Shown: positions 9,098 to 64,000, counted from the stretch's first letter. The stretch is 64,000 nt of DNA from Candidatus Gastranaerophilales bacterium (GCA_944325635.1 CALVBD010000005.1:60388-124387), one strand, 5' to 3'. Translations and numbers: made by a program. The notes: a model not told the origin generated them from the sequence alone.

Positions 9098-9100
9098 TAA

Positions 9101-9225
9101 GTAAAGTAGGTTGGGCTTTCAGCCCAACAACAGATTATAAATTTTCAAGAGCCGCAATCTTCATCGCGTTAAAATCAGGCGTGCGCCCGAACCAGATTTC
9201 CTGTGCTGCAATTGCCTGATATACA
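9101..9225 (-). pseudogene. 125-bp tandem duplicate: hairpin plus displaced copy of the last 29 codons and stop of aroE
   Basis: 9101-9224 aligns with 9226-9349 with 6 substitutions; translates as VYQAIAAQEIWFGRTPDFNAMKIAALENL* versus ...TPNFNAM... in the intact gene. Confidence 0.85.
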
Positions 9226-9259
9226 GTAAAGTAGGTTGGGCTTTCAGCCCAACAACAGA

Positions 9260-10099
9260 TTATAAATTTTCAAGAGCCGCAATCTTCATTGCGTTGAAAT
9301 TAGGCGTACGCCCGAACCAGATTTCCTGCGCGGCAATTGCCTGATATACCAGCATATCAAGACCGTTAATCGTTCTATAACCTAGTTTTTCCGCATTCTT
9401 TAAAAGAATTGTCTTTTTAGGGTTATAAATAACGTCGTACACTACAGCCCAATCAGGCAAGGTTTTCAAAACATTTTCTTCAACCGGCGTCATATCGGCA
9501 GAAACTCCCTGCATACCGATTGGCGTTGTATTCACTAAAATATCATATTTTGATAAATCCCGAACAGCATCAATCTGGTATGAAGTAAAGGTTATCTGCG
9601 GAAATTTTCTTCTCATATATGCCATATAATCCATGGCGTTTGGAATATTTCTTGTATAAACTCCGATTTCAGAAATTCCTAAATCAGACAAACCCAGAAC
9701 AGCCGCGCGGCTTGCTCCGCCTGTTCCTAGTATTGCAGCTTTTTTCCCTGCAAGATTTATGTCAGAAGGAATTGCCTTTTTAAATCCCGTTGCATCTGTA
9801 TTAAATGCACTGAAGGTTTTGTCTGAATTTATTTTTACAGTATTCACCGCTCCTGCAATATCCGCATACTTATCCACCTCCTGAACAAAAAGAGAAATCG
9901 GAAGTTTCAGAGGTATTGTGACATTAAATCCTGTGTAATTTTCACGTTTCAGAAATTTTACTCTATCCACAAGATCCTCCGGCGGAGTTTCCAGAATATC
10001 GTAAGTTGCATTAATCCCGAGACTTTCAAATCCTGCCTTATGAATGACCGCAGAAAGTGAATGTCCTAAAGGATACCCTATCAGTCCGAATTTATTCAT
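9260..10099 (-). CDS. aroE: Shikimate dehydrogenase
   Basis: MNKFGLIGYPLGHSLS N-terminus, GTGGASRAA NADP-binding motif, NTTPIGM motif. Start taken at the Met (10099) overlapping the topA stop; the ORF extends to 10132. Confidence 0.9.
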   Translation of the reverse strand: MNKFGLIGYPLGHSLSAVIHKAGFESLGINATYDILETPPEDLVDRVKFLKRENYTGFNVTIPLKLPISLFVQEVDKYADIAGAVNTVKINSDKTFSAFNTDATGFKKAIPSDINLAGKKAAILGTGGASRAAVLGLSDLGISEIGVYTRNIPNAMDYMAYMRRKFPQITFTSYQIDAVRDLSKYDILVNTTPIGMQGVSADMTPVEENVLKTLPDWAVVYDVIYNPKKTILLKNAEKLGYRTINGLDMLVYQAIAAQEIWFGRTPNFNAMKIAALENL

Positions 10100-12419
10100 C
10101 AGAATTTTCCTCCGGTTTTGGCTCTTCCACACGTTTATAACCGCATGAGCGGTTTGAACATTCTATTGTAGTTCCTTTTTTCAGAACTTTTTTCACCAAT
10201 AATGCGCCGCAGTCAGGGCATTCTTCACCTGTCGGTTCGTTCCAGAGTACAAAGTCGCAGTCAGGATACTTGTCGCAGCCAAAGAATACGGTTCCGCGCT
10301 TGGATTTTCTTTCAACTATTACACCTTTGCCGCATTTCGGGCATTTAACGCCTGTTGAGCGGCGGTAAGGTTTACGGAATTTGCAATCCTCATTAGTGCA
10401 TTCCATATACTTGCCGTAAGGACCTGTTTTAAATACCATATCAGAGCCGCATTTTTCACATTTTTCTTCGCATTTTTCAGCTTCGGAAGGTGTTTGAGAA
10501 GAAGCGCCTTCTGCCATTGCATTTAAAGACATTACGGTTTTGCATTCAGGATATCCTGAACACCCTAAGAACTGATTCCCCTGACGGCTTGTTCTGACAA
10601 GCATCGGTTTGCCGCAGTTCGGACACATAACATTTGTTTCAATTCGTACCCGCTCGCCGCTTTTCATCGCGTCATTTACAACCTCGATAAACGGTTCGTA
10701 GAAATCCTCGAGAACCTTATTCCATACAGCTTTTTTATCCGCAATCTGGTCTAATTTTGTTTCCATGCCGGCTGTAAATTTATAATCCATAACATCCGTA
10801 AACTGCGCCATAAGCTGTTTACAGACAGTTCTACCAAGAAGCGTCGGCGCCAGTGCTTTTTCCAGTTTCTCAACATAACCGCGCGTCTGAATTTTTGTAA
10901 TAATTGAGGCATAAGTTGACGGACGACCGATTCCGTACTCTTCCAGCGCCTTAACCAGAGTTGCTTCCGAGTATCTTGGCGGCGGCTGGGTGAAGTGCTG
11001 TTTCGGCGTAACCTTACGACAGGTCAGAATGTCATCTTTATGCAAATCAGGAATTTTTTCCTTTGGTGCATTATCTTCTTCATCATTCTCGTTATAAAGT
11101 TTCAGGAAACCGTCGAAAGTTACCTTGCTTGTGCTGGCTCTTAATGTATAGTCGCCTGCCGTTATTTCAACGGTTTTATTTGCAACGGTTGCATTTGTCA
11201 TCTGGGACGACATAAATTTATTCCAGATTAATTTATACAACCTGTACTGTTCATTAGAAAGATATTTTTTTATACTGTCAGGCGTCCGCTCAGGGTATGA
11301 TGGTCTGATGGCTTCGTGGGCGTCCTGAACATTTTGTTTGCCTTTGGCATAAATATTCGGCTTTTCAGGATAATATTTCTCGCCGTAATTTTTCAGGATA
11401 AAATCTTTTGCCATTGCCTGCGCGTCATCGGAAATTCTTGTACTGTCGGTTCTCATATAGGTAATCAAACCTACTGCACCGTTTTCAAGTTCAATACCTT
11501 CATATAATTTCTGCGCAATCTGCATTGTTTTTTGAACGCCGTAACCTAGTTTTGATGAGGCTTCTCTCTGAAGCGTAGAAGTAATAAAAGGAGCTGTCGG
11601 CTTACGTTTTGTTTCCCTGTTTGTAATCTTTTCAACCTTGTATTCCGTTGATTTATCCGAGAGAAATTCTACAATCTTCTGCGCTTCTTCTTCGTTTGGA
11701 ATTTCTATTTTTTTATCTTTGTATTTTGAAAGTTCTGCCTCGAAAACTCCGCCTTCTTTTTCCAATTCCGTATGAATAGACCAGTATTCAACAGGTACGA
11801 ATGCTTCAATTTCCTCTTCTCTTTCGCAAATCATTCTAAGGGCGACAGATTGAACACGTCCTGCAGAGAGGTGATAATTCCCGAGCTGTTTCCACAATAC
11901 AGGGCTTAATTTGTAGCCTACGAGTTTGTCAAGAATTTGTCTTGTCTGCTGGGCTTTTACCCTGTCCATATCAATTGCGCGCGGATGTTCAACCGCGTAT
12001 TTTACTGCCTTCGGCGTAATCTCGTTAAATTCAATTCTGAAAACCTTATCATCCGGCACATTCAGAACCTGTCTGACATGCCAGGCAATAGCCTCTCCCT
12101 CGCGGTCGGGGTCGGAAGCCAGAAATATTTTATCGCTTTTTTTTGATAATTCATTCAATTTGGTAACGACTTTTTTCTTCTCGGGGATAACAACAAAAGA
12201 TGGCTGGAAACCGTTATTAACATCAAACCCGAGAACATTCTGCGGCAAATCTCTGATGTGACCGAAACTCGCTTCTATCGTATAGCTGTCCCCTAAAATT
12301 TTTCTGATAGTTTTGGATTTTGCAGGAGACTCTACTATTACAAGAGCTTTCTCTTTTTTGGATTTAGTTTTTGACGCCTGCGCGCCCTCTGTTTTTTCTG
12401 CTGCTGCCGCTTTTGCCAT
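10092..12419 (-). CDS. topA: DNA topoisomerase I
   Basis: 775 aa; Toprim start LVIVESPAKSKTI, DPDREGEAIAWH, type IA core, and four C-terminal Cys4 zinc-ribbon repeats. Confidence 0.95.
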   Translation of the reverse strand: MAKAAAAEKTEGAQASKTKSKKEKALVIVESPAKSKTIRKILGDSYTIEASFGHIRDLPQNVLGFDVNNGFQPSFVVIPEKKKVVTKLNELSKKSDKIFLASDPDREGEAIAWHVRQVLNVPDDKVFRIEFNEITPKAVKYAVEHPRAIDMDRVKAQQTRQILDKLVGYKLSPVLWKQLGNYHLSAGRVQSVALRMICEREEEIEAFVPVEYWSIHTELEKEGGVFEAELSKYKDKKIEIPNEEEAQKIVEFLSDKSTEYKVEKITNRETKRKPTAPFITSTLQREASSKLGYGVQKTMQIAQKLYEGIELENGAVGLITYMRTDSTRISDDAQAMAKDFILKNYGEKYYPEKPNIYAKGKQNVQDAHEAIRPSYPERTPDSIKKYLSNEQYRLYKLIWNKFMSSQMTNATVANKTVEITAGDYTLRASTSKVTFDGFLKLYNENDEEDNAPKEKIPDLHKDDILTCRKVTPKQHFTQPPPRYSEATLVKALEEYGIGRPSTYASIITKIQTRGYVEKLEKALAPTLLGRTVCKQLMAQFTDVMDYKFTAGMETKLDQIADKKAVWNKVLEDFYEPFIEVVNDAMKSGERVRIETNVMCPNCGKPMLVRTSRQGNQFLGCSGYPECKTVMSLNAMAEGASSQTPSEAEKCEEKCEKCGSDMVFKTGPYGKYMECTNEDCKFRKPYRRSTGVKCPKCGKGVIVERKSKRGTVFFGCDKYPDCDFVLWNEPTGEECPDCGALLVKKVLKKGTTIECSNRSCGYKRVEEPKPEENSDE

Positions 12420-19413: not shown

Positions 19414-19961
19414 TTAAGGGAATAGACCAGTGCGCAAAAGGCACAAGTCTATTCTTGTATATGGGGCTTGTGCATCCCCTGCCCATGCACTGACATTCTT
19501 TTAGTTTTAATATCTGATACGTTCACTTTTTCTTTTTTATTGCTATGAAAAAAGAAAAAGTGAACCGAAAAAGAAAAACACGCAAAGAAACAGTGGCGCT
19601 ACGCGCCACAAAACCAAATGAAAGTAGTTGAAGGCTTTGCCTTCAACCATTAGTGGTATGCTATAGTGCTAACGCACACGCACACCTTACCGACCTACGG
19701 TCGGTCTAAGGAAGGTGCGGAAACCTTTTTCTACCCTCTTTAACAATTTTAGTTTTAACTATACGACTACTTTCGTATCTTCTGCTGACTCGTTTTTTGG
19801 GTCGCGTGTTTTCTTTTCTTTCGTCTATTTCTTTTCTTTTGCTTCAAGGACTCCGTTTTGAGTTGACTAAATGTCAAGTCAAAATGGAGGGCAAAAGAAA
19901 AGAAATAGACTTAATAAGGAAATCTGATAGAACCTTTTGCGCACTAATCTGTTTTCCTTAA
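19414..19961. repeat. Large ORF-free nested-helix element, copy A (candidate structured RNA or MITE-like element)
   Basis: Outer inverted repeat 19414-19441/19933-19961. Perfect 18-bp hairpin 19521-19538/19548-19565. Helix 19566-19583 with 19804-19823. Perfect 20-bp helix 19823-19842/19891-19910. GC hairpins at 19593-19609, 19627-19647 and 19690-19704. Module order is shared with 33249-33768. Confidence 0.7.
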
Positions 19962-20034
19962 GAATATTAAATCCCCATCATCCGGCACTGAGTGCCACAT
20001 TCTCCCGCCCGGGGGAGAAGGTAGAAAACTTTTT

Positions 20035-23730: not shown

Positions 23731-24273
23731 ATGGAATTAAAAGGCTCGAAGACGGAAAAGAATCTTCTTGAGGCTTTTGCAGGAGAATCTCAGGCAAGAA
23801 ATAAATACACCTACTACGCTTCACAAGCAAAAAAAGAAGGGTTTGTTCAAATAAGCAAAATATTTGAAGAAACCGCAAATAACGAAAAAGAACACGCAAA
23901 AATCTGGTTTAAATATTTGCATGAAGGAAACAAAATTCCCGAAACAATTAAAAACCTCGAAGATGCGGCAAACGGTGAAAATTACGAATGGACCGATATG
24001 TACGCACGTTTTGCACAAGAAGCAAAAGAAGAAGGATTCGATACTCTCGCAATTCTCTTTGAAATGGTAGGCAAAATCGAAAAAGAACATGAAGAGCGCT
24101 ACAGAAAACTGCTCGAAAATGTTAAAAATAACACAGTATTTGAAAAGCCATCCGCCGTTGTATGGGAATGTGCAAACTGCGGACATACTTTCGAAGGAGA
24201 AAAGGCTCCGGAATTATGCCCTGTGTGTAAACACCCGAAAGCTTACTTCTTTATGAAAGCAAAAAATTACTAA
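23731..24273 (+). CDS. Rubrerythrin
   Basis: 180 aa; ferritin-like diiron domain ([32 protein letters not shown]) plus C-terminal rubredoxin-like CANCG...CPVC. Confidence 0.95.
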
Positions 24274-24327: not shown

Positions 24328-24894
24328 ATGGCAAAAATAAAGGAGTTGGTTGTGACCGAATTTAAGGGAAGTGATACAGAACAGAATTTAGCCAAAGCTT
24401 TCGTTGATGAAGCTTCAGGTTATTTTAAATATTCACTTTATGCTGTTCTTGCAAAATATGAAGGACAAGATTACATCAGTAAAATATTTGAAGATATTGC
24501 TCAAAATGAAAAAGAACACGCTAAAATCTGGTTCAAGTGGCTTAATGACGGAAAATTTCCGAAAACCTTGAAGAACCTTAAAGATGCGATTGAACTTGAA
24601 AATAATGCTGTTACTGCCGAATACCCTGAATTCATCAACAAAGCAAAAGAAGAAGGTTTTGAACATCTTGCCGGACTTTTTGAAAAAATTGCCGAAATAG
24701 AAAAAAATCATCTTGAAAAATTCAAAAAATTAAAACAATCGCTTGAAAATGAACTAAATATCCCGGCTGACACCACACCGATGTTATGGGAATGTTCGGC
24801 TTGCGGAGCTGTTATTGAACAAGATACCCGCCCGGATTACTGTCCTCTTTGCGCGCATGAAGATACTTTCTTTTTTAAAAAGAATCCCCGTTAA
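24328..24894 (+). CDS. Rubrerythrin family protein
   Basis: 188 aa; EKEHAKIWF and EIEKNHLEKF diiron motifs, C-terminal CSACG...CPLC. Confidence 0.9.
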   Translation: MAKIKELVVTEFKGSDTEQNLAKAFVDEASGYFKYSLYAVLAKYEGQDYISKIFEDIAQNEKEHAKIWFKWLNDGKFPKTLKNLKDAIELENNAVTAEYPEFINKAKEEGFEHLAGLFEKIAEIEKNHLEKFKKLKQSLENELNIPADTTPMLWECSACGAVIEQDTRPDYCPLCAHEDTFFFKKNPR

Positions 24895-30313: not shown

Positions 30314-30436
30314 TTTACCCCTCAACCCTTGAGGGCGAGTGGGAATTTTAATGCCTCCATTTGTAAGGGAGGTGGCGCGAATGCGCCGGAGGGTTTTCTT
30401 TAGCGTCATTGCTGGCTACGACCCGCAATCGCAGCA
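30314..30436. repeat. Mosaic of small palindromic repeats
   Basis: Three parts: ttttacccctcaa-ccc-ttgaggg hairpin (30319-30335); module X (30353-30398), the reverse complement of 33420-33463; and hairpin tttagcgtcattgctggctacgacccgcaatcgcagc (30399-30436), related to 63819-63856. Confidence 0.75.
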
Positions 30437-30546
30437 CTGTAAAATACCACAATTTCAGATTAATCAATTCTCTAATCTTGCTATTTCCATATAAAAAAAT
30501 TTATAGTAAGATATTTTTTATAAGAAGTAAGATGAGGGGATATTAT

Positions 30547-33126: not shown

Positions 33127-33921
33127 CATAAAATATGTTATCGGAAGATTTTTTACCCCTCTCCCTATGGGAGAGGGAGGAATTTCTTAGCGAACATTAG
33201 TGAGCATAGAAATTCGGGTGAGGGGTAATTTTATATTCTTTCAGGTATGTTCATTTCTTTTCTTTTTTAGCCGGAAAAAGAAAAGAAACGAACCAAAGAA
33301 AAGAAAAATCGGCAAAAAATTCCAGCGTCGCTACGCGCCGCGAAATAAAATGGAAGTAGTTGAAGGCAGAGCCTTCAACCTTATATGCTCGCTATCGCGG
33401 CAAAGCCGCACGCTCGCCTGAAAACCCTCCGGCGCTTGGCGCCACCTCCCTTACAAGGGAGGCTTTTACTTTACCCCCTTTGTAAAGGGGGGTAGGGGGG
33501 ATTTATTTAGACCAACCTGTGGTCGGTTGCCGAACGTGTACGAAGTGCGATAGGGAGGCTCAAAGGTTAAATGCGTCAGCATTTAACGACATCCATTCTG
33601 TCTTGCGCTGCGAAGCAGCGCTGTAAATAATGCGTGTTTTTCTTTCTTAGCCGATATTCTTTCTTTGCTTGTTTGCCGCCGTTAAACGGGCACGCATACG
33701 CATAGCGTATGCTTATGCCCTCTGGCGGCAATACGCTTTGCATCGCAACAAAAAGAAAGAATATCCGGTGCAGGGTTTGGGGCTGCATAAGCCCCAAATA
33801 TAAATATTGTAGCTATATAATCCTCACCCGAATTTATAAATTCGCATTTGCTTTTTAACAAAATATCCCCTCGCCCCTTACGGGCGAGGGGATATTCCTT
33901 GTTCCGATAACATATTTTATG
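33127..33921. repeat. Large ORF-free nested-helix element, copy B (candidate structured RNA or MITE-like element)
   Basis: Perfect 20-bp outer inverted repeat 33127-33146/33902-33921; 14-bp helix 33210-33223/33822-33835; 19-bp hairpin 33249-33267/33275-33293. The core 33249-33768 is colinear with 19521-19910. Carries an inserted module X (33420-33463) and other small hairpins. Confidence 0.7.
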
Positions 33922-34058
33922 TATTCAAGTTCTACTTTAGATTATAAAAAAGACAAATCCTCAAAATTAAGTATTCACTTTTGTAAAGAAAATTTCTATA
34001 ATGTTTACATAATTTCATGTTTATTATTACATGTGTTTAAAATAGGACGGGTTAAACA

Positions 34059-40569: not shown

Positions 40570-41142
40570 ATGAAGGATCTAAAAGGAACAAAAACCGAAC
40601 AGAATTTGATTAACGCATTTGCAGGAGAATCTCAAGCCAGAAACCGTTATACAATATTTTCCAAAATAGCAAAAAAAGAAGGCTATGAACAAATTTCTCA
40701 GATTTTTCTTGATACGGCAGAAAACGAAAGAGAACATGCAAAACTTTTCTATAAATATTTAGGCAATATTGAAGGTCATGTTGATGCAACTTACCCGTTT
40801 GAACTCGGGACAACGGAAGAAAATCTTGAAAGCGGTGTAAAAGGGGAACGAGATGAGTGGGAATTCATTTACAGAAAAGGGGAAGATGACGCAAATGAAG
40901 AAGGCTTTGATGAAATAGCAGAAACCTTCCGCCTCGTGAGAACAGTAGAACAACACCATGCGGAACGCTATGCTGTACTGCTTAAAAATTTAAAAGAAAA
41001 AACTGTATTTAATAAACCTGAGCCTCAATACTGGGTTTGCAGAAAATGCGGATTTATAGCATATTCTGACACTGCGCCGAAAGAGTGCCCATTATGTCAT
41101 CATCCGCAAGGATATTTTGAAATAAAATCAGAAAAATTTTAA
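40570..41142 (+). CDS. Rubrerythrin
   Basis: 190 aa; [32 protein letters not shown] diiron motifs and C-terminal CRKCG...CPLC. Confidence 0.95.
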   Translation: MKDLKGTKTEQNLINAFAGESQARNRYTIFSKIAKKEGYEQISQIFLDTAENEREHAKLFYKYLGNIEGHVDATYPFELGTTEENLESGVKGERDEWEFIYRKGEDDANEEGFDEIAETFRLVRTVEQHHAERYAVLLKNLKEKTVFNKPEPQYWVCRKCGFIAYSDTAPKECPLCHHPQGYFEIKSEKF

Positions 41143-41180: not shown

Positions 41181-41224
41181 ACTATTTGATTTTAAGCTGT
41201 TTTAGTCGTATAATAAACAGGAGT

Positions 41225-44200
41225 ATGGGCAAAAAAACAATTGCAACTATTTCAATAATTTCACTAATAGCTTTATACGGGCTTTATTACCGGGGAATTC
41301 CCGCCGCAATTAATAAACCTTATTTTGAAAACTTTATTGAACGTCAAATACAAAAAAACAGCGGGTTAAAAATAGATTTTGTTAACCCTGAATTTAAAAT
41401 GGGATGGCTTCCCGCAGTATGGCTGAAAGCTGATGAAATTTCCGTCACAAATGATGATAAATCAAAACCGTTAAAACTTGAAAATCCTGCCCTGAAACTT
41501 CAGTTGTTTCCGCTTCTTTTAAAACACGCAGAAGTAAGCGTATTCAATGCAAATAACACAACTGCAAAACTTTCCATTGATAAACGCGGACAAATATTTC
41601 TCGGGCAATACCCTCTCAATTTTGATAAAAAATCAAAAATAACTTTAAACAAAATAAAGATTAATCTGAACAAATACTATATTACGCTCAACGATAACGT
41701 TTTGGGAAAAACGGTTATTCTTGACGGTAAAACATTCAAACTTGAAGATTTTGAAAAAGACAAACGTGCGAAATTTTCTACAAAATCAAGTCTTATTGTT
41801 GACGGCAAACCATCTATAATCAATACTTCCGTCGATTTGCGGTTTCCTATTAATAAGATTAATGAAGACCAGCTTCTACTCAACGCAGATATAGAAAACC
41901 TTGATTTATCCCTTTTCAAAATTTACGTAAAATATTTTTCAAAAAACAGATACACTGATTTAAAAGGAATTTTAAATTTCCACGCAAAAACAGATGTAAC
42001 AAAAGAAAAACACAAAAATATCACGGCAGATTTAACCCTTGATAATTTCGGTTTAATGAAAAAAGATACGGCGGGTTCAAGCTTCTGCAACGGACGGCTT
42101 GAAATAAAAACAACCCTTAACACTTTAAAAAACGGTATTCATCTGGAAAACCTGACGCTTAAAGCACCGAAAGTTGACCTTGCTGCAAGCGGCAATATCA
42201 CAGGTTTAAATAAAAAATTTCCATACCTTGACATACAAACAACAATTAACCCGTCAAGATCGGAAAACATTATTCCGCTTCTTCCGGGAGAAGAAAATCT
42301 TCTGCCTGATTTCAACTTCTATTTATTAAAAAAACATATATTCTATAGCAACATTATGGGGCATATTAATATAAAAGGGATTGCCAATAATCCTGAGTTA
42401 TTCGGCAACGTCCTGATAACGGACGGATATCTGATAAAAAGAATTCCTGATACGACAGAAGGTGCGACAGTTAAACTTTCTATGGAAAAACAAATGATGC
42501 ACCTTGATGCAAATGTCGAAACCGCCCCGAATGAAGGAGTTGATGTCACAGGAGATTTCAAACTTTTCACAAACAGACGCTCTGATATACATATAAAAAG
42601 TACAAAAAACATAAGTCTTTTAAAGGCATATAACGTTGTAATGCCGCTGCATAACATCATCAAATTTGAAATCGGACCTGTTCCGATGATGAAGGTTACA
42701 GGTACCGGAAATATTGATTTAAGAATATCAGGGACAAAAATAGAACCTCATGCCTGGGGCGAAATGAATTTTAAAGACACCAATGCTTCATTTAACGATA
42801 TCCATAACCTTTCTGTCACGGGAATTAACGCAAAACTAACATTCGACGACAGACTTGCAACATTTAAATCATCAAAAGCTTTTATTCTGGGACAGCCTGT
42901 CACGATAGAAGGTACAAGTTCACTTTCAGGCGATATGGATTTTACGGCAAAATCTAAAGGACTGCCAACAGAACATTTATTAAAGGTAATAAACACCTCG
43001 CCTGTACTTGCAGAATTGCAGGAGGTTGTTGAACCTATAAAAACCATCTCCGGAAAGGCTGATTTGCTTTTAAATTTAACAGGACACATGAAACCTGGCG
43101 TTGAACCTGTTTTTAACGAAAACCTGTTTGCAAAAGGTACAATAGATTTTCATAACAACAAAGGTGAATTAAAAGATATTCCTGCAGAAATCTCACAACT
43201 ATCCGGAACGGTAAATTTCGTAAATGAGGACGCTGATTTTGATATGGAAACTCTTGTTGAAAAATCAAAAGTTAAATTCAAAGGCACCGTAAAAAACGAA
43301 AACATTAATTTAACGGCATATTCAAACAAGTTCAACGCCGGAGATGCTCTCAGAATTTCCTCCAGAATGTACTCATATATTCCATACGTAAAAGATTCAG
43401 AGTCGATAAATTCATCGTTTACGGCATTTTATCAGGCTAAAGCCGACAAGATTATTCATTATGACAAAATTATAATGAACGGGAAAATCTACAACAATTT
43501 CGGCTCCGGAAAACCAATCCTTGTCGGAAACGGGGAATTTAATCTTAAAAATAACCACCTGACGGTTTCCCCGCTAAAAGGTACATATAAAAGCAATCCG
43601 TACAACTTAAAAGTCGATGTCACCGGATTTTTAACGGATAACTTCAAAATAAACGGTTATGCCTCAATGAAAAACTTTAACCTTGCGGCGTTGAATGAAC
43701 TCGGACCGATAGAAGAAATTTTTCCTGAATACAAAGACCAATTGAAACAGTTTGGAAGATATGAAGGGAAAACTAATATTGCAGCCAGAATAAACAATAA
43801 TAATCTGCGAGTTTTCTCTCAACTGAATGATGTAAGTTTTGTATATCTTCCGAAACACTTGAGAATAAGAATAAAAGACGGTCATTACCTTTTAAATAAC
43901 GATAGGCTTAATCTAAGCAGAATAAGCGGTTTTGTCGGCAGAATGCCGGTTTTTGTAAACGGCAAAATCACTAATGTATTTAAAAACCCTGATGCGGATT
44001 TATATATAAACGCAAAACCTACACAGGAATTCTTTGACCAGTTCTTTAACAATAAAGCGGTGTATCCGATAAAACTTAAAGGGGATGTCAATTGCACGGC
44101 AGAACTCAACGGAACTCAGGATAAATTAAGTACAAAAGTTGATTTAAAACTTGATGAAAGCTCCAGTCTTTACTATATGGGCGCCACAATCGGGGATATG

Positions 44201-45685
44201 GTAAGCCCTGTAGAGATAAAAGCGGATGCCGTTCTCTCGCCGAAAAGCATCAAAATCAATAACTTTAAATACGACAAAATTATCACATCATTAAATAACA
44301 AAGAAAACCCTAACACCCAGCTTACGGCTAGCGGTTATGTTGAACAGCTCGGAGAAAATTACTTCAAATTTAAAAATCTCCGCATAACAACCCACAACCC
44401 GACGGACGCTAAAATTTTCAACATAATATTCAAAAAACCGCTTATGAAACAGGGTGTATTTACATCCGATATGATTATTAACGGAACATCTAAAGCCCCG
44501 AAAATATTAGGAAAACTTGATGTCACAAGCATTGATATGCCGTTTTTTGATGCGACAATCAAAGATATACATACAGATTTCAAAAAAGATATAGTAACAA
44601 TAAATGCACGCGGAAGCATTCTCAATAATGCAATAACTCTGGATGCGATTTTAAAAAACTCCTTCCCTGACCCGATTGTATTTAAGGATATCAAACTCCA
44701 CTTTATAGATTTGAATTTAAATAAAATCACCGGCTCGCTGCAGGATTACGACGCTGATATTTATAAACAGCAGATAGCAACACCATACCAGCTTCAGCCG
44801 ATTGACCCATCAATAATCCGCATAGAAAATTCGGAAGTTACTGCAGATAACATTCTATTAAAAGCACTTTCCGCCACAAACTTTAAAGCTAATCTCAAAA
44901 TGGGCGCTGATTCTGTCATAAATGTGACGAATTACGGCTTTGATATGGCGCAGGGGAAAGTGACGGGAGATTTAAAATACAACCTTAAGACAAGCGATTT
45001 TAAAATAAATTCGCACATAACAGATGCAAATGCTCAAATAATCTCGGAGTCACTGTTTGATTTAAAAGGCCAGCTATACGGAACAACAACAGGAGACTTA
45101 ACTCTCTACTGCAACGGGAAAACACAGGATTTATGCCTGAATACACTCGGCGGCAAAGGAAATTTTGAAGTTGCGCACGGCAGAATGCCGAAATTAGGGT
45201 CACTGGAATACCTTCTTAAAGCTGCAAACCTTGCAAAAAGCGGTCTTACAGGACTTTCTATCAACAGTATTATTGATATAATTACACCGCTGAAAACCGG
45301 TGAATTTGAAAGTATCAGCGGCAGTTATGAAATTAAAGACGGCATTGCATACGAAGTTAATGTATATTCAAAAGGAAAAGACCTCAACCTATACCTCACT
45401 GGCGCTTATAACGTCACAAATTCCAACGCTGATATGAAGGTATACGGAACCCTTTCTAACAACATTACAAACGTTCTAGGACGCCTTAAAAATGCTTCTT
45501 TGAATACGCTTTTAAATATGATACCATTATTAAACAAAAACGAAATTTCACCTGAACTTGAAGCAGAGTTAAAGAAAATTCCGAATTACGAAGTTTACAA
45601 TAACATATTCAGAATATTTGCCGTTGATATCGACGGTGACATCAATGGCATAAATTACGTAAAAAGCTTCAAGTGGGTAAAATAA
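41225..45685 (+). CDS. Giant envelope protein, AsmA/TamB-like
   Basis: About 1490 aa; a single N-terminal TM (IATISIISLIALYGLYY), then a long beta-rich Asn/Lys-rich body. Assignment rests on size, layout and diderm context only. Start uncertain (41186 TTG or 41225 ATG). Confidence 0.5.
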   Translation: MGKKTIATISIISLIALYGLYYRGIPAAINKPYFENFIERQIQKNSGLKIDFVNPEFKMGWLPAVWLKADEISVTNDDKSKPLKLENPALKLQLFPLLLKHAEVSVFNANNTTAKLSIDKRGQIFLGQYPLNFDKKSKITLNKIKINLNKYYITLNDNVLGKTVILDGKTFKLEDFEKDKRAKFSTKSSLIVDGKPSIINTSVDLRFPINKINEDQLLLNADIENLDLSLFKIYVKYFSKNRYTDLKGILNFHAKTDVTKEKHKNITADLTLDNFGLMKKDTAGSSFCNGRLEIKTTLNTLKNGIHLENLTLKAPKVDLAASGNITGLNKKFPYLDIQTTINPSRSENIIPLLPGEENLLPDFNFYLLKKHIFYSNIMGHINIKGIANNPELFGNVLITDGYLIKRIPDTTEGATVKLSMEKQMMHLDANVETAPNEGVDVTGDFKLFTNRRSDIHIKSTKNISLLKAYNVVMPLHNIIKFEIGPVPMMKVTGTGNIDLRISGTKIEPHAWGEMNFKDTNASFNDIHNLSVTGINAKLTFDDRLATFKSSKAFILGQPVTIEGTSSLSGDMDFTAKSKGLPTEHLLKVINTSPVLAELQEVVEPIKTISGKADLLLNLTGHMKPGVEPVFNENLFAKGTIDFHNNKGELKDIPAEISQLSGTVNFVNEDADFDMETLVEKSKVKFKGTVKNENINLTAYSNKFNAGDALRISSRMYSYIPYVKDSESINSSFTAFYQAKADKIIHYDKIIMNGKIYNNFGSGKPILVGNGEFNLKNNHLTVSPLKGTYKSNPYNLKVDVTGFLTDNFKINGYASMKNFNLAALNELGPIEEIFPEYKDQLKQFGRYEGKTNIAARINNNNLRVFSQLNDVSFVYLPKHLRIRIKDGHYLLNNDRLNLSRISGFVGRMPVFVNGKITNVFKNPDADLYINAKPTQEFFDQFFNNKAVYPIKLKGDVNCTAELNGTQDKLSTKVDLKLDESSSLYYMGATIGDMVSPVEIKADAVLSPKSIKINNFKYDKIITSLNNKENPNTQLTASGYVEQLGENYFKFKNLRITTHNPTDAKIFNIIFKKPLMKQGVFTSDMIINGTSKAPKILGKLDVTSIDMPFFDATIKDIHTDFKKDIVTINARGSILNNAITLDAILKNSFPDPIVFKDIKLHFIDLNLNKITGSLQDYDADIYKQQIATPYQLQPIDPSIIRIENSEVTADNILLKALSATNFKANLKMGADSVINVTNYGFDMAQGKVTGDLKYNLKTSDFKINSHITDANAQIISESLFDLKGQLYGTTTGDLTLYCNGKTQDLCLNTLGGKGNFEVAHGRMPKLGSLEYLLKAANLAKSGLTGLSINSIIDIITPLKTGEFESISGSYEIKDGIAYEVNVYSKGKDLNLYLTGAYNVTNSNADMKVYGTLSNNITNVLGRLKNASLNTLLNMIPLLNKNEISPELEAELKKIPNYEVYNNIFRIFAVDIDGDINGINYVKSFKWVK

Positions 45686-63818: not shown

Positions 63819-63856
63819 TTTAGCGTCGTTGCGGGCTGCTCCCCGCAATCGCAAAG
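63819..63856. repeat. Hairpin repeat tttagcgtcgttgcgggctgctccccgcaatcgcaaag
   Basis: Same family as 30399-30436 (shared ttagcgtc.ttgc...cgcaatcgca). Confidence 0.75.
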
Positions 63857-63882
63857 CAACGGAATATTACTATTGTATATTT

Positions 63883-63914
63883 ACGTCATCCCGGGCTACG
63901 ACCCGGGATCGCAT
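63883..63914. repeat. Hairpin repeat acgtcatcccgggctacgacccgggatcgcat
   Basis: Perfect 8-bp stem atcccggg/cccgggat with loop ctacga, the same loop as in 30399-30436. Confidence 0.75.
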
Positions 63915-63936
63915 AATTGTTACATCCGACGGAAAT

Positions 63937-63960
63937 GCAATTCCGCATAGCTTGAAAAAC
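63937..63960. repeat. 24-nt repeat motif gcaattccgcatagcttgaaaaac
   Basis: Near-identical to 9074-9097. Confidence 0.6.
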
Positions 63961-64000
63961 TTGATTTCAGCTGATGCTTCAATCAGTTTTGCTAAGCTTT

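Follow-up and report, generated by a model that had tools for sequence, protein, structure and literature searches.

Probable foldback DNA repeats with putative triplex-type ends in Candidatus Gastranaerophilales

A 64,000-nt stretch of DNA from Candidatus Gastranaerophilales bacterium (GCA_944325635.1 CALVBD010000005.1:60388-124387), hereafter the window, carries two sets of nested palindromes: copy A at 19415..19966 and copy B at 33127..33921, the latter in the gap after an M16 peptidase gene. Are these the genes of a structured RNA, or are they repeats of the DNA itself? A first-pass annotation had described copy B as a second, larger copy of the nested-helix element seen in copy A, with compensatory changes between the two. 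We agree that one composite element of nested palindromes is present twice, as A and B. Both probably belong to a family of non-coding foldback repeats dispersed in Gastranaerophilales (Melainabacteria), a DNA-level element rather than a gene. To this explanation as a whole, a dispersed foldback DNA repeat with triplex-type ends, we assign a probability of about 0.6. Coordinates are positions in the window, and L-numbers denote retrieved loci.

The ends of the element carry much of the argument. Each end module consists, from the outside in, of a closing stem, a pyrimidine arm (Py1) with its loop, a purine arm (Pu1), a spacer of 6-8 nt and a second purine tract (Pu2), directly after which stands (C)ACGC or TCGGC. 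The complement strand reads Py, Py, Pu. The two copies, bounded by different outermost repeats (T1 or T2), and their four end modules are as follows.

19415..19966, no strand assigned: copy A, a T2-bounded copy of copy B's family, 552 nt
19521..19583, plus strand: left end module of copy A, variant v1, with Py1 at 19527-19538, Pu1 to 19560, spacer TGAACC, Pu2 at 19567-19578 and CACGC
19804..19909, minus strand: right end module of copy A, variant A, with PyA at 19809-19821, spacer CGTCTA, PyB at 19828-19840, the nested palindrome N1 in the loop and PuB at 19893-19905
33127..33921, no strand assigned: copy B, a complete T1-bounded foldback repeat, 795 nt, with a perfect 20-bp terminal inverted repeat
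33249..33313, plus strand: left end module of copy B, variant v3, mirror identity 14/14
33632..33765, minus strand: right end module of copy B, variant B1, mirror identity 12/12

The left end of copy B comprises the closing stem GTTCA, Py1 (33254-33268), a loop, Pu1 (33275-33288), the spacer CGAACC (33289-33294), the mirror tract Pu2 (33295-33308) and TCGGC, which is a class II intrastrand-triplex architecture on the plus strand and class IV on the minus strand. The right end reads GCGTG, PyA (33637-33648), a spacer (33649-33656), PyB (33657-33666), a loop with a nested palindrome, PuB (33750-33761) and TATC; its order is class IV (pyrimidine-motif) on the plus strand and class II on the minus strand. 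Pu2 is the mirror image of Pu1, and neither a direct nor an inverted copy of it. The first-pass annotation had noted the polypurine strand but missed that it mirrors the hairpin arm. The mirror is retained in 61 of 61 end-module instances retrieved, which fall into seven sequence variants with five distinct G patterns. All 61 have a perfect or near-perfect Watson-Crick arm (stems of 12-15 nt, at most one mismatch). Nine instances (eight of variant A and one of v1, in L005) score 8 of 12-14 as printed and are perfect after a one-base shift at the spacer-tract boundary, checked by eye. The G residues lie at equal distances from the spacer on both sides: 1,7 / 4,8,10 / 4,9 / 3,7 / 3,9. The spacer (loop 2) measures 5-8 nt, and loop 1 measures 2-12 nt in plain copies and 52-95 nt where it holds a nested palindrome. 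Classes of intrastrand triplex (PIT) motifs were reportedly set out by Hoyne et al. in 2000, with loops of 0-10 nt; the loop lengths of plain copies lie within those limits and beyond the limits of ITxF (1-6 nt). In all four ends of A and B, Py is complementary to Pu and the third block is a mirror of Pu, as an intrastrand triplex demands. We scanned the 64-kb window for this three-block architecture, with stems of at least 10 nt and at most one mismatch, and obtained exactly four sites, namely both ends of A and of B; 100 Markov-1 controls gave none.

What keeps the mirror? Variant v2 (AAAAGAGAAAGAAA / AAAGAAAGAGAAAA) rules out a direct-repeat account of Pu1 and Pu2, as does the G register on either side of the spacer. 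A long-range helix between Pu2 and PyA is ruled out as the reason for the purine tract, since the left variants (v1-v3) and the right variants (B1, B2) assort freely and occur in all six combinations. Thus, the three strands co-vary within one end and not between ends. We know of no replication-based process that produces mirror repeats, which argues that selection keeps the symmetry, by acting on a structure with Pu2 antiparallel to Pu1. By its geometry such a structure, with Pu2 parallel to Py1, would be a triple helix. Tracts with 80-85% A favor a T.A-T pyrimidine-motif triplex. The pyrimidine motif would lie on the plus strand at the right end and on the minus strand at the left end, that is, at the 3'-proximal end of either strand.

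We suggest that the end module, when single-stranded or extruded, could fold into an intrastrand triple helix, that its A/T-rich composition would favor the T.A-T / C+.G-C pyrimidine motif, and that this fold may be what selection keeps in the family. The module most likely serves as a cis-acting end structure needed for propagation of the element. It might act as the recognition site of a trans-acting enzyme; alternatively, it might stall replication and promote template switching and recombination. Local genomic instability would be a side effect of the end structure.

How widespread is the family? A scan of species-representative genomes with the 23-nt anchor hairpin found 22 loci, all in three Gastranaerophilales metagenome-assembled genomes (MAGs); when only perfect anchors are counted, two of the MAGs carry 9-11 copies each and the third carries 4. 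Several copies lie at contig ends, so the true copy number is higher. A metagenome scan by anchor pattern yielded one true additional copy (L023, on one contig); its other matches, L024-L029, were discarded as chance occurrences of the pattern. Viral contigs scanned with two patterns contained no family copy, and BLAST of copy B against plasmids and phages gave no match. The delimited copies are intergenic in 15 of 15 cases and take every orientation relative to the neighboring genes. Long reading frames that enter copies are stop-to-stop frames only, without support as genes.

The family has a common layout. Outermost are paired repeats, either T1 (CATAAAATATGTTATCGG) or T2, a self-palindromic hairpin unit of ~46 nt (TAAGGGAATAGACTAGTGC-GCAAAAG-GCACTAGTCTATTCCCTTA). 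Inside this pair may lie extra layers, a 14-bp pair in copy B or a GGGGCTGCATAAGCCCC hairpin. Next inward come an end module and then an arm with small hairpins of the form GCGTCGC-TnC-GCGCCGC and the anchor hairpin. The center holds variable G/C-rich palindromes and the central hairpin, beyond which lie a degenerate, inverted second arm and a second end module, also inverted. In L006 the right-arm position holds a true inverted left arm; the ground plan is thus a long palindrome, i.e. a foldback element. The core order (end module, GCGTCGC hairpin, anchor hairpin, center, arm, end module) is constant across unlinked loci of four or more genomes, in at least 25 copies. The two ends of a copy always face each other, inverted, and end modules are never solitary in the fetched DNA.

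Comparing close strains shows that the element comes and goes. The spacer between the M16 gene and a 214-aa gene is 932 nt in the window and 147-203 nt, with an ordinary terminator, in relatives whose M16 peptidase is 86-87% identical and which lack the element. Copy B starts 1 nt past the M16 stop codon, where relatives carry the terminator, and it is missing at the orthologous site in the relatives L032-L041. In L030/L031 (M16 95% identical), a T1-bounded derivative occupies this site, immediately past the stop codon; it has lost its entire core, the left pyrimidine arm is joined to the right purine arm, and the gene downstream differs from that of the window. An 82% relative has an element fragment only, beside a different gene. 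An exact look-up of the 905-aa M16 reading frame returned no record because the real gene encodes 859 aa.

At the copy A locus, the spacer between SecF and PdxA has at least seven lengths (193, 643, 694/695, 845, 941-948, 978 and 1129 nt) among contigs whose SecF is identical or 99% identical to that of the window and whose nucleotide flanks are 92-99.5% identical where measured. In L057, 51 nt with a single T2 hairpin stand in place of the 552 nt of copy A, between flanks that are 97.3% and 99.5% identical. L045-L049 carry a mosaic version, with the v1 end of copy A on the opposite side of the spacer, and the element of L019 meets the shared PdxA flank with its other end. The spacer of L064, a 94% relative, holds a bidirectional terminator only. 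L007 and L021 have both flanks in common, and their cores lie in opposite orientation with different inner modules. Family copies also stand at synteny breakpoints (L030 6081-6473, L059 after 2430, L042 4084-4233); the gene downstream of M16 differs in L030 and L042, and a TolC-like gene replaces the PdxA side in L059. Close strains differ by gain, loss, inversion and internal deletion of the element, and the family is multi-copy, intergenic, strand-symmetric and mosaic. As T2 is palindromic, two T2 units are both direct and inverted repeats; homologous recombination between them could then invert the element or delete it down to a solo T2.

Separately, in the lineage with 94% identical SecF (L062-L065, 3565-4626), the SecF-PdxA spacer holds a gene of 353 aa in L062, L063 and L065 and not in L064. 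Its only Pfam match is weak, to nucleoside 2-deoxyribosyltransferase. Neither this gene (L062) nor those of L059 (one of 95 aa and one TolC-like) qualifies as a transposase. A reading as IS200/IS605-like elements (PATE, omega-RNA) was rejected, as the two ends are in inverted and not in same-strand orientation, with neither tnpA nor tnpB nearby.

Several points weigh against a mobile DNA repeat with triplex-type ends. Triplex formation is predicted solely from sequence symmetry. The closing stem (GTTCA/TGAAC and equivalents) occupies most of the spacer and would have to open before the third strand folds back. A solo T2 may be what a deletion left behind and not an unoccupied target, and the changes between strains may reflect recombination or gene conversion among resident copies, not transposition. 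No target-site duplication was established at 15 T1 and 38 T2 ends. The T1 flanks have no consistent direct repeat, and TA precedes 8 of the 15 T1 ends; T2 units always start TA/AGGG and finish CCCT/TA, where TA may be target or part of the unit. The window and 59 family-related or flanking loci contain no transposase, RAYT or other candidate mobilizing gene, and no genome-wide Y1/HUH search was made; no autonomous element with the same ends and a transposase gene was seen in the same window and loci. Read-through transcripts may have a role at the RNA level. For the related TM_ECO motif of Escherichia coli, no stable triplex was detected in vivo (PMC4666352).

Among the alternatives, the one that survives best accepts mobile DNA and places selection on RNA structure; we consider it unlikely. 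A read-through transcript of either orientation would end Py(Hoogsteen)-linker-Py(Watson-Crick)-loop-Pu and could form a U.A-U / C+.G-C triple helix; the upstream mRNA would thereby be protected at its 3' end, as with ENE/MALAT1 elements. The MALAT1 triple helix has the order U1-U2-A-tract, and the block order of the family equals it. A gene 3' end lies within ~120 nt in 13 of 14 copies, copy B itself takes the terminator position of its relatives, and the tracts are A/U-rich and long enough for 12-15 triples. Class IV order stands at the 3' side of either strand, and this is the order formable in RNA: purine-motif triplexes do not form in RNA and pyrimidine-motif ones do (PMC4666352). Yet what comes after the triplex hairpin is 150 nt or more of element and not a 3' end, and no T-run terminator stands there. 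One copy lies between divergent genes (L014), the bias toward 3' ends lacks significance given that 25% of spacers are expected to be divergent, and the loss and inversion seen between strains are apparently tolerated. A more ambitious reading, in which the end modules are a natural, selected triple-helix device, is likewise unlikely; the device would be either a bacterial counterpart of ENE/MALAT1, placed at gene 3' ends by an orientation-independent foldback repeat, or a transposon end of a new kind, recognized or processed as an intrastrand DNA triplex.

It is still less probable that there is no composite element, and that A and B are a pile-up of unrelated small palindromic repeats in permissive intergenic sites. 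SP1, N1, N2 and the T2 outer hairpin are indeed separate dispersed small palindromes, nested in the element or flanking it. SP1 has a solo copy at 30350-30398 of the window (89.8% identity to 33420-33466) and further matches in L010 (2133-2178, 5539-5584), and T2 is solo in L057. N2 is present in copy B and in L003, L008, L021, L022 and L023, and is missing from otherwise identical ends in six copies (L007, L009, L012, L014, L015, L018). N1, the insert of copy A, is missing from the same end variant in L002, L005 and L011, and it is found too in the loop of another end variant (E.v2) in L045-L049. Other small palindromic repeats also occur in the genome. The possibility raised in the first-pass annotation, that the shared modules are independent repeats adjacent by chance, therefore holds for SP1, the capped hairpin and the T2 outer hairpin. 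It fails for the core, whose modules co-occur in the order described above, with both ends inverted toward each other and end modules never alone.

Two related observations were made on the way. Upstream of the M16 peptidase gene, the solo SP1 site (30320-30398) has a CCCTCAACCCTTGAGGGCGAGTGGG hairpin as its neighbor. In L008 (about 1970-2035), L017 and L013, the AAATGCGTCAGCATTT hairpin gives way to yet another nested palindrome, bounded by GTAAAAACTTCTGTC...GACAGAAGTTTTTAC, and the L013 element is truncated at this point.

The remaining alternative is the implicit reading of the first-pass annotation, a family of strand-specific genes for structured non-coding RNA. Copy B as a whole folds far more stably than its shuffles (z = -27.6). 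Nine copies have one consensus structure of 131 pairs, of which 16 show two-sided changes, so a comparative fold does unite the copies as had been proposed. These changes sit almost wholly in local palindromes, the covariation term of RNAalifold is about zero, and the long-range pair AATGG/CCATT is disrupted in L009 and L018 without compensation. The annotation had also left the transcribed strand unsettled, and the ambiguity is real. Across 14 copies, the mean difference in minimum free energy between strands is -0.3 +/- 5.6 kcal/mol, with equal G-U counts; the two strands of L007 give -211.9 and -212.0 kcal/mol, and with RNAalifold on the nine copies the two strands reach -123.0 and -131.5 kcal/mol. 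Neither copy has a match in Rfam at gathering score, and at E-values up to 10 both match only sub-threshold, generic miRNA- or leader-like hairpins. No sigma-70-like promoter site lies inside copy A or copy B; a promoter-like site at 33974-34002, close to copy B, is part of the conserved region ahead of the next gene. The lack of strand asymmetry, ~10 copies per genome and the presence or absence of copies at strain level together point to a DNA repeat rather than an RNA gene. An RNA gene is thus very improbable: its stable fold (z = -17 to -28), the shared consensus structure and the ~520 nt of ordered modules speak for it, but the strands are equivalent, Rfam match and promoter-like site are absent, covariation is lacking, long-range pairs are broken, orientation flips at orthologous loci and modules are swapped or deleted between strains.

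The compensatory changes claimed between A and B need a different reading. Both cited base-pair differences are present: C-G at 19526/19560 in copy A is T-A at 33254/33288 in copy B, and A-T at 19621/19773 is G-C at 33353/33593. Given the six end combinations, the near-zero covariation and the broken AATGG/CCATT pair, they are differences between freely recombining module variants. The core had been called colinear with copy A. This is correct for ~135 nt at the left, to which sequence similarity is confined (33246-33380 versus 19518-19648, 75.5% identity); the right halves share an architecture and are built of different module types.

Within copy B, the modules between and around the ends are listed below. 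The small hairpin at 33325..33341 and the G/C-rich motif are readings of the sequence.

33127..33146, plus strand: left T1 terminal inverted repeat, CATAAAATATGTTATCGGAA, exact reverse complement of 33902-33921
33902..33921, minus strand: right T1 terminal inverted repeat, which pairs with 33127-33146
33210..33223, plus strand: left arm of the second-layer inverted repeat (L2 module), exact 14 bp with its partner 33822-33835
33822..33835, minus strand: right arm of the second-layer inverted repeat, exact reverse complement of 33210-33223
33325..33341, no strand assigned: small hairpin GCGTCGC-TAC-GCGCCGC, conserved across copies
33359..33379, no strand assigned: anchor hairpin GTTGAAGGC-AGA-GCCTTCAAC, with AAATGGAAGTA before it
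33420..33466, no strand assigned: nested small palindromic repeat SP1, an independent dispersed repeat
33474..33500, plus strand: G/C-rich triplex-like motif CCCCCTTT-GTA-AAGGGGGG-TA-GGGGGGA, Py-Pu-Pu
33510..33527, no strand assigned: central hairpin, the symmetry center of the foldback
33528..33631, no strand assigned: right arm (RH type), which repeats the left arm inverted and in degenerate form, with hairpins AAATGCGTCAGCATTT and GCGCTGC-GAA-GCAGCGC
33667..33744, no strand assigned: nested palindrome N2 (the 'capped hairpin' 33674-33730) in the loop of the right-end hairpin
33779..33795, no strand assigned: GC hairpin GGGGCTGCATAAGCCCC
33862..33896, no strand assigned: perfect 15-bp hairpin AATATCCCCTCGCCC / GGGCGAGGGGATATT (I5)

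Several of these had been noted in the first-pass annotation and are found as described: the inverted repeat that brackets the 795-nt gap, whose perfect pairing ends exactly at 20 bp, the 14-bp helix, the capped hairpin and the palindromic module at 33420-33463. The T1 terminus also bounds copies in L007, L014, L016, L018, L020, L021 and L030, and the L2 module is present too in L004, L013, L014, L021 and L023. L021 holds a family member with 90% identity to copy B across 633 nt. The counterpart of the GCGTCGC hairpin in copy A is GTGGCGC/GCGCCAC, a two-sided change. The 27-nt hairpin motif AAGTAGTTGAAGGC-NNN-GCCTTCAACC occurs in the window only at 19622 and 33354, and 100 shuffles gave no match. 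The central hairpin has the variants GACCGGCC/GGCCGGT and CCTGCC/GGCAGG, which preserve pairing; so does GGGTGCGAAGAGCACCC, the variant of the GGGGCTGCATAAGCCCC hairpin in L042. The GCGCTGC hairpin of the right arm has compensatory variants in L018 and L021. The two arms of copy B are complementary over 51 nt at 71% (I1) and 28 nt at 75% (I2).

To our knowledge, no function has been assigned to the intrastrand triplex motifs of bacteria in the 25 years that they have been known. The present family adds what the E. coli motif does not, variants in which hairpin arm, partner and mirror tract have changed together. Because all three strands change together, selection would act on a three-stranded fold, and no copying mechanism accounts for the pattern. 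If true, the seven variants with three co-varying strands would be the first comparative evidence of selection on triplex-forming ability in bacteria. Strains whose flanks are 97-99% identical have between them the element, a solo hairpin or an inverted mosaic; they offer a natural system, and comparing them ties triplex motifs to genome instability in an uncultured gut lineage. There is also a practical side: such repeats break assemblies, mark synteny breakpoints in Gastranaerophilales MAGs and yield spurious open reading frames (ORFs), including the two 73-aa ORFs called in copy B (33200..33421, plus strand; 33576..33797, minus strand), which, as had been suspected, are artefacts of repeat sequence.

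The window has other features of note. At 9100-9349, a 125-nt unit in tandem duplicate (95% identical) extends over the 3' end of a shikimate dehydrogenase gene (9260..10132, minus strand), and each unit opens with a small hairpin, GTTGGGCTTTCAGCCCAAC. A separate family of short intergenic palindromes, rich in G/C (CGTCATTGCTGGCTACGACCCGCAATCGCAGCAC), occurs at 30404-30450, 63824-63870 and 63884-63930, and 9040-9098 matches 63903-63961; it is unrelated to copies A and B and has a related copy in L019. Three rubrerythrin paralogues (Rubrerythrin plus rubredoxin-like domain) lie at 23731-24273, 24328-24894 and 40570-41142, two of them adjacent. An ORF of 1499 aa (41186-45685) has no Pfam match at E <= 0.001.

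How does the family compare with known systems? Our literature search on Melainabacteria repeats or nested small dispersed repeats of cyanobacteria found nothing relevant. Like miniature inverted-repeat transposable elements (MITEs) and foldback elements, the family is non-coding, 0.4-0.8 kb long, multi-copy, intergenic and insertion-polymorphic, with perfect T1 repeats of 18-20 bp; the 20-bp perfect T1 is common to at least eight copies. Unlike MITEs, it has a long degenerate palindrome inside and structured end modules instead of simple terminal inverted repeats. Neither a target-site duplication, looked for at 15 T1 ends, nor an autonomous partner was found among the loci examined.

REP/BIME/REPIN, BOX, ERIC and Correia repeats are mosaic palindromic repeats, and nested small dispersed repeats of Nostoc were reportedly described by Elhai et al. 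in 2008. The family resembles the REP/BIME/REPIN type and the Nostoc repeats in its mosaic palindromic units, in the nesting of units within loops and in its position near gene 3' ends or terminators. T2 is a palindromic unit of ~46 nt that occurs paired and solo; REP/REPIN units measure 20-40 nt and stand in inverted pairs, with a cognate RAYT gene in the genome. The differences are that our composite is much larger, that triplex-type end modules are not known from those families and that no RAYT is seen in the fetched loci.

ENE/MALAT1 elements have been reviewed in viruses, vertebrates and eukaryotic (plant, fungal) transposons, with no bacterial example named (PMC7583470). The family shares with them the Py(Hoogsteen)-Py(Watson-Crick)-A-rich order, 10-15 mostly U.A-U triples with few C+.G-C and a link to transposable elements; unlike theirs, its purine tract is internal and is not a 3' terminus or poly(A) (PMC7583470).

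The closest known counterpart is BoxC/PIT/TM_ECO of E. coli, CCCTCNCCC-N3-6-GGGNGAGGG-N3-GGGNGAGGG (Holder et al. 2015, PMC4666352). A single strand of TM_ECO forms a triplex in vitro; the repeat is found in inverted-repeat configuration and is tied to local instability and variable loci, and neither a function nor an in vivo triplex has been demonstrated for it (PMC4666352). Intrastrand triplex motifs are described there as abundant in the cyanobacterial lineage, and the motif at 33474-33500 of copy B, with its Py-Pu-Pu block order as in TM_ECO, resembles these G/C-rich motifs (PMC4666352). The family as a whole shares with BoxC/PIT/TM_ECO three blocks on one strand (Py-loop-Pu-loop-mirror Pu, class II, with class IV on the complement), as well as multiple intergenic copies, inversion on opposite strands and variability from strain to strain (PMC4666352). 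In contrast to the G/C-rich 9-mer of TM_ECO, our tracts are A/T-rich (80-85% A) and 12-15 nt long, the loops are longer (7-12 nt and 6-8 nt), and the motif is not free-standing but forms both ends of a foldback element of 400-800 nt (PMC4666352). The family also has seven co-varying sequence variants, and comparable variation is not described for TM_ECO in the text available (PMC4666352). Among the known intrastrand-triplex repeats of bacteria, the pair of end modules is thus a new variant, A/T-rich and structurally embedded.

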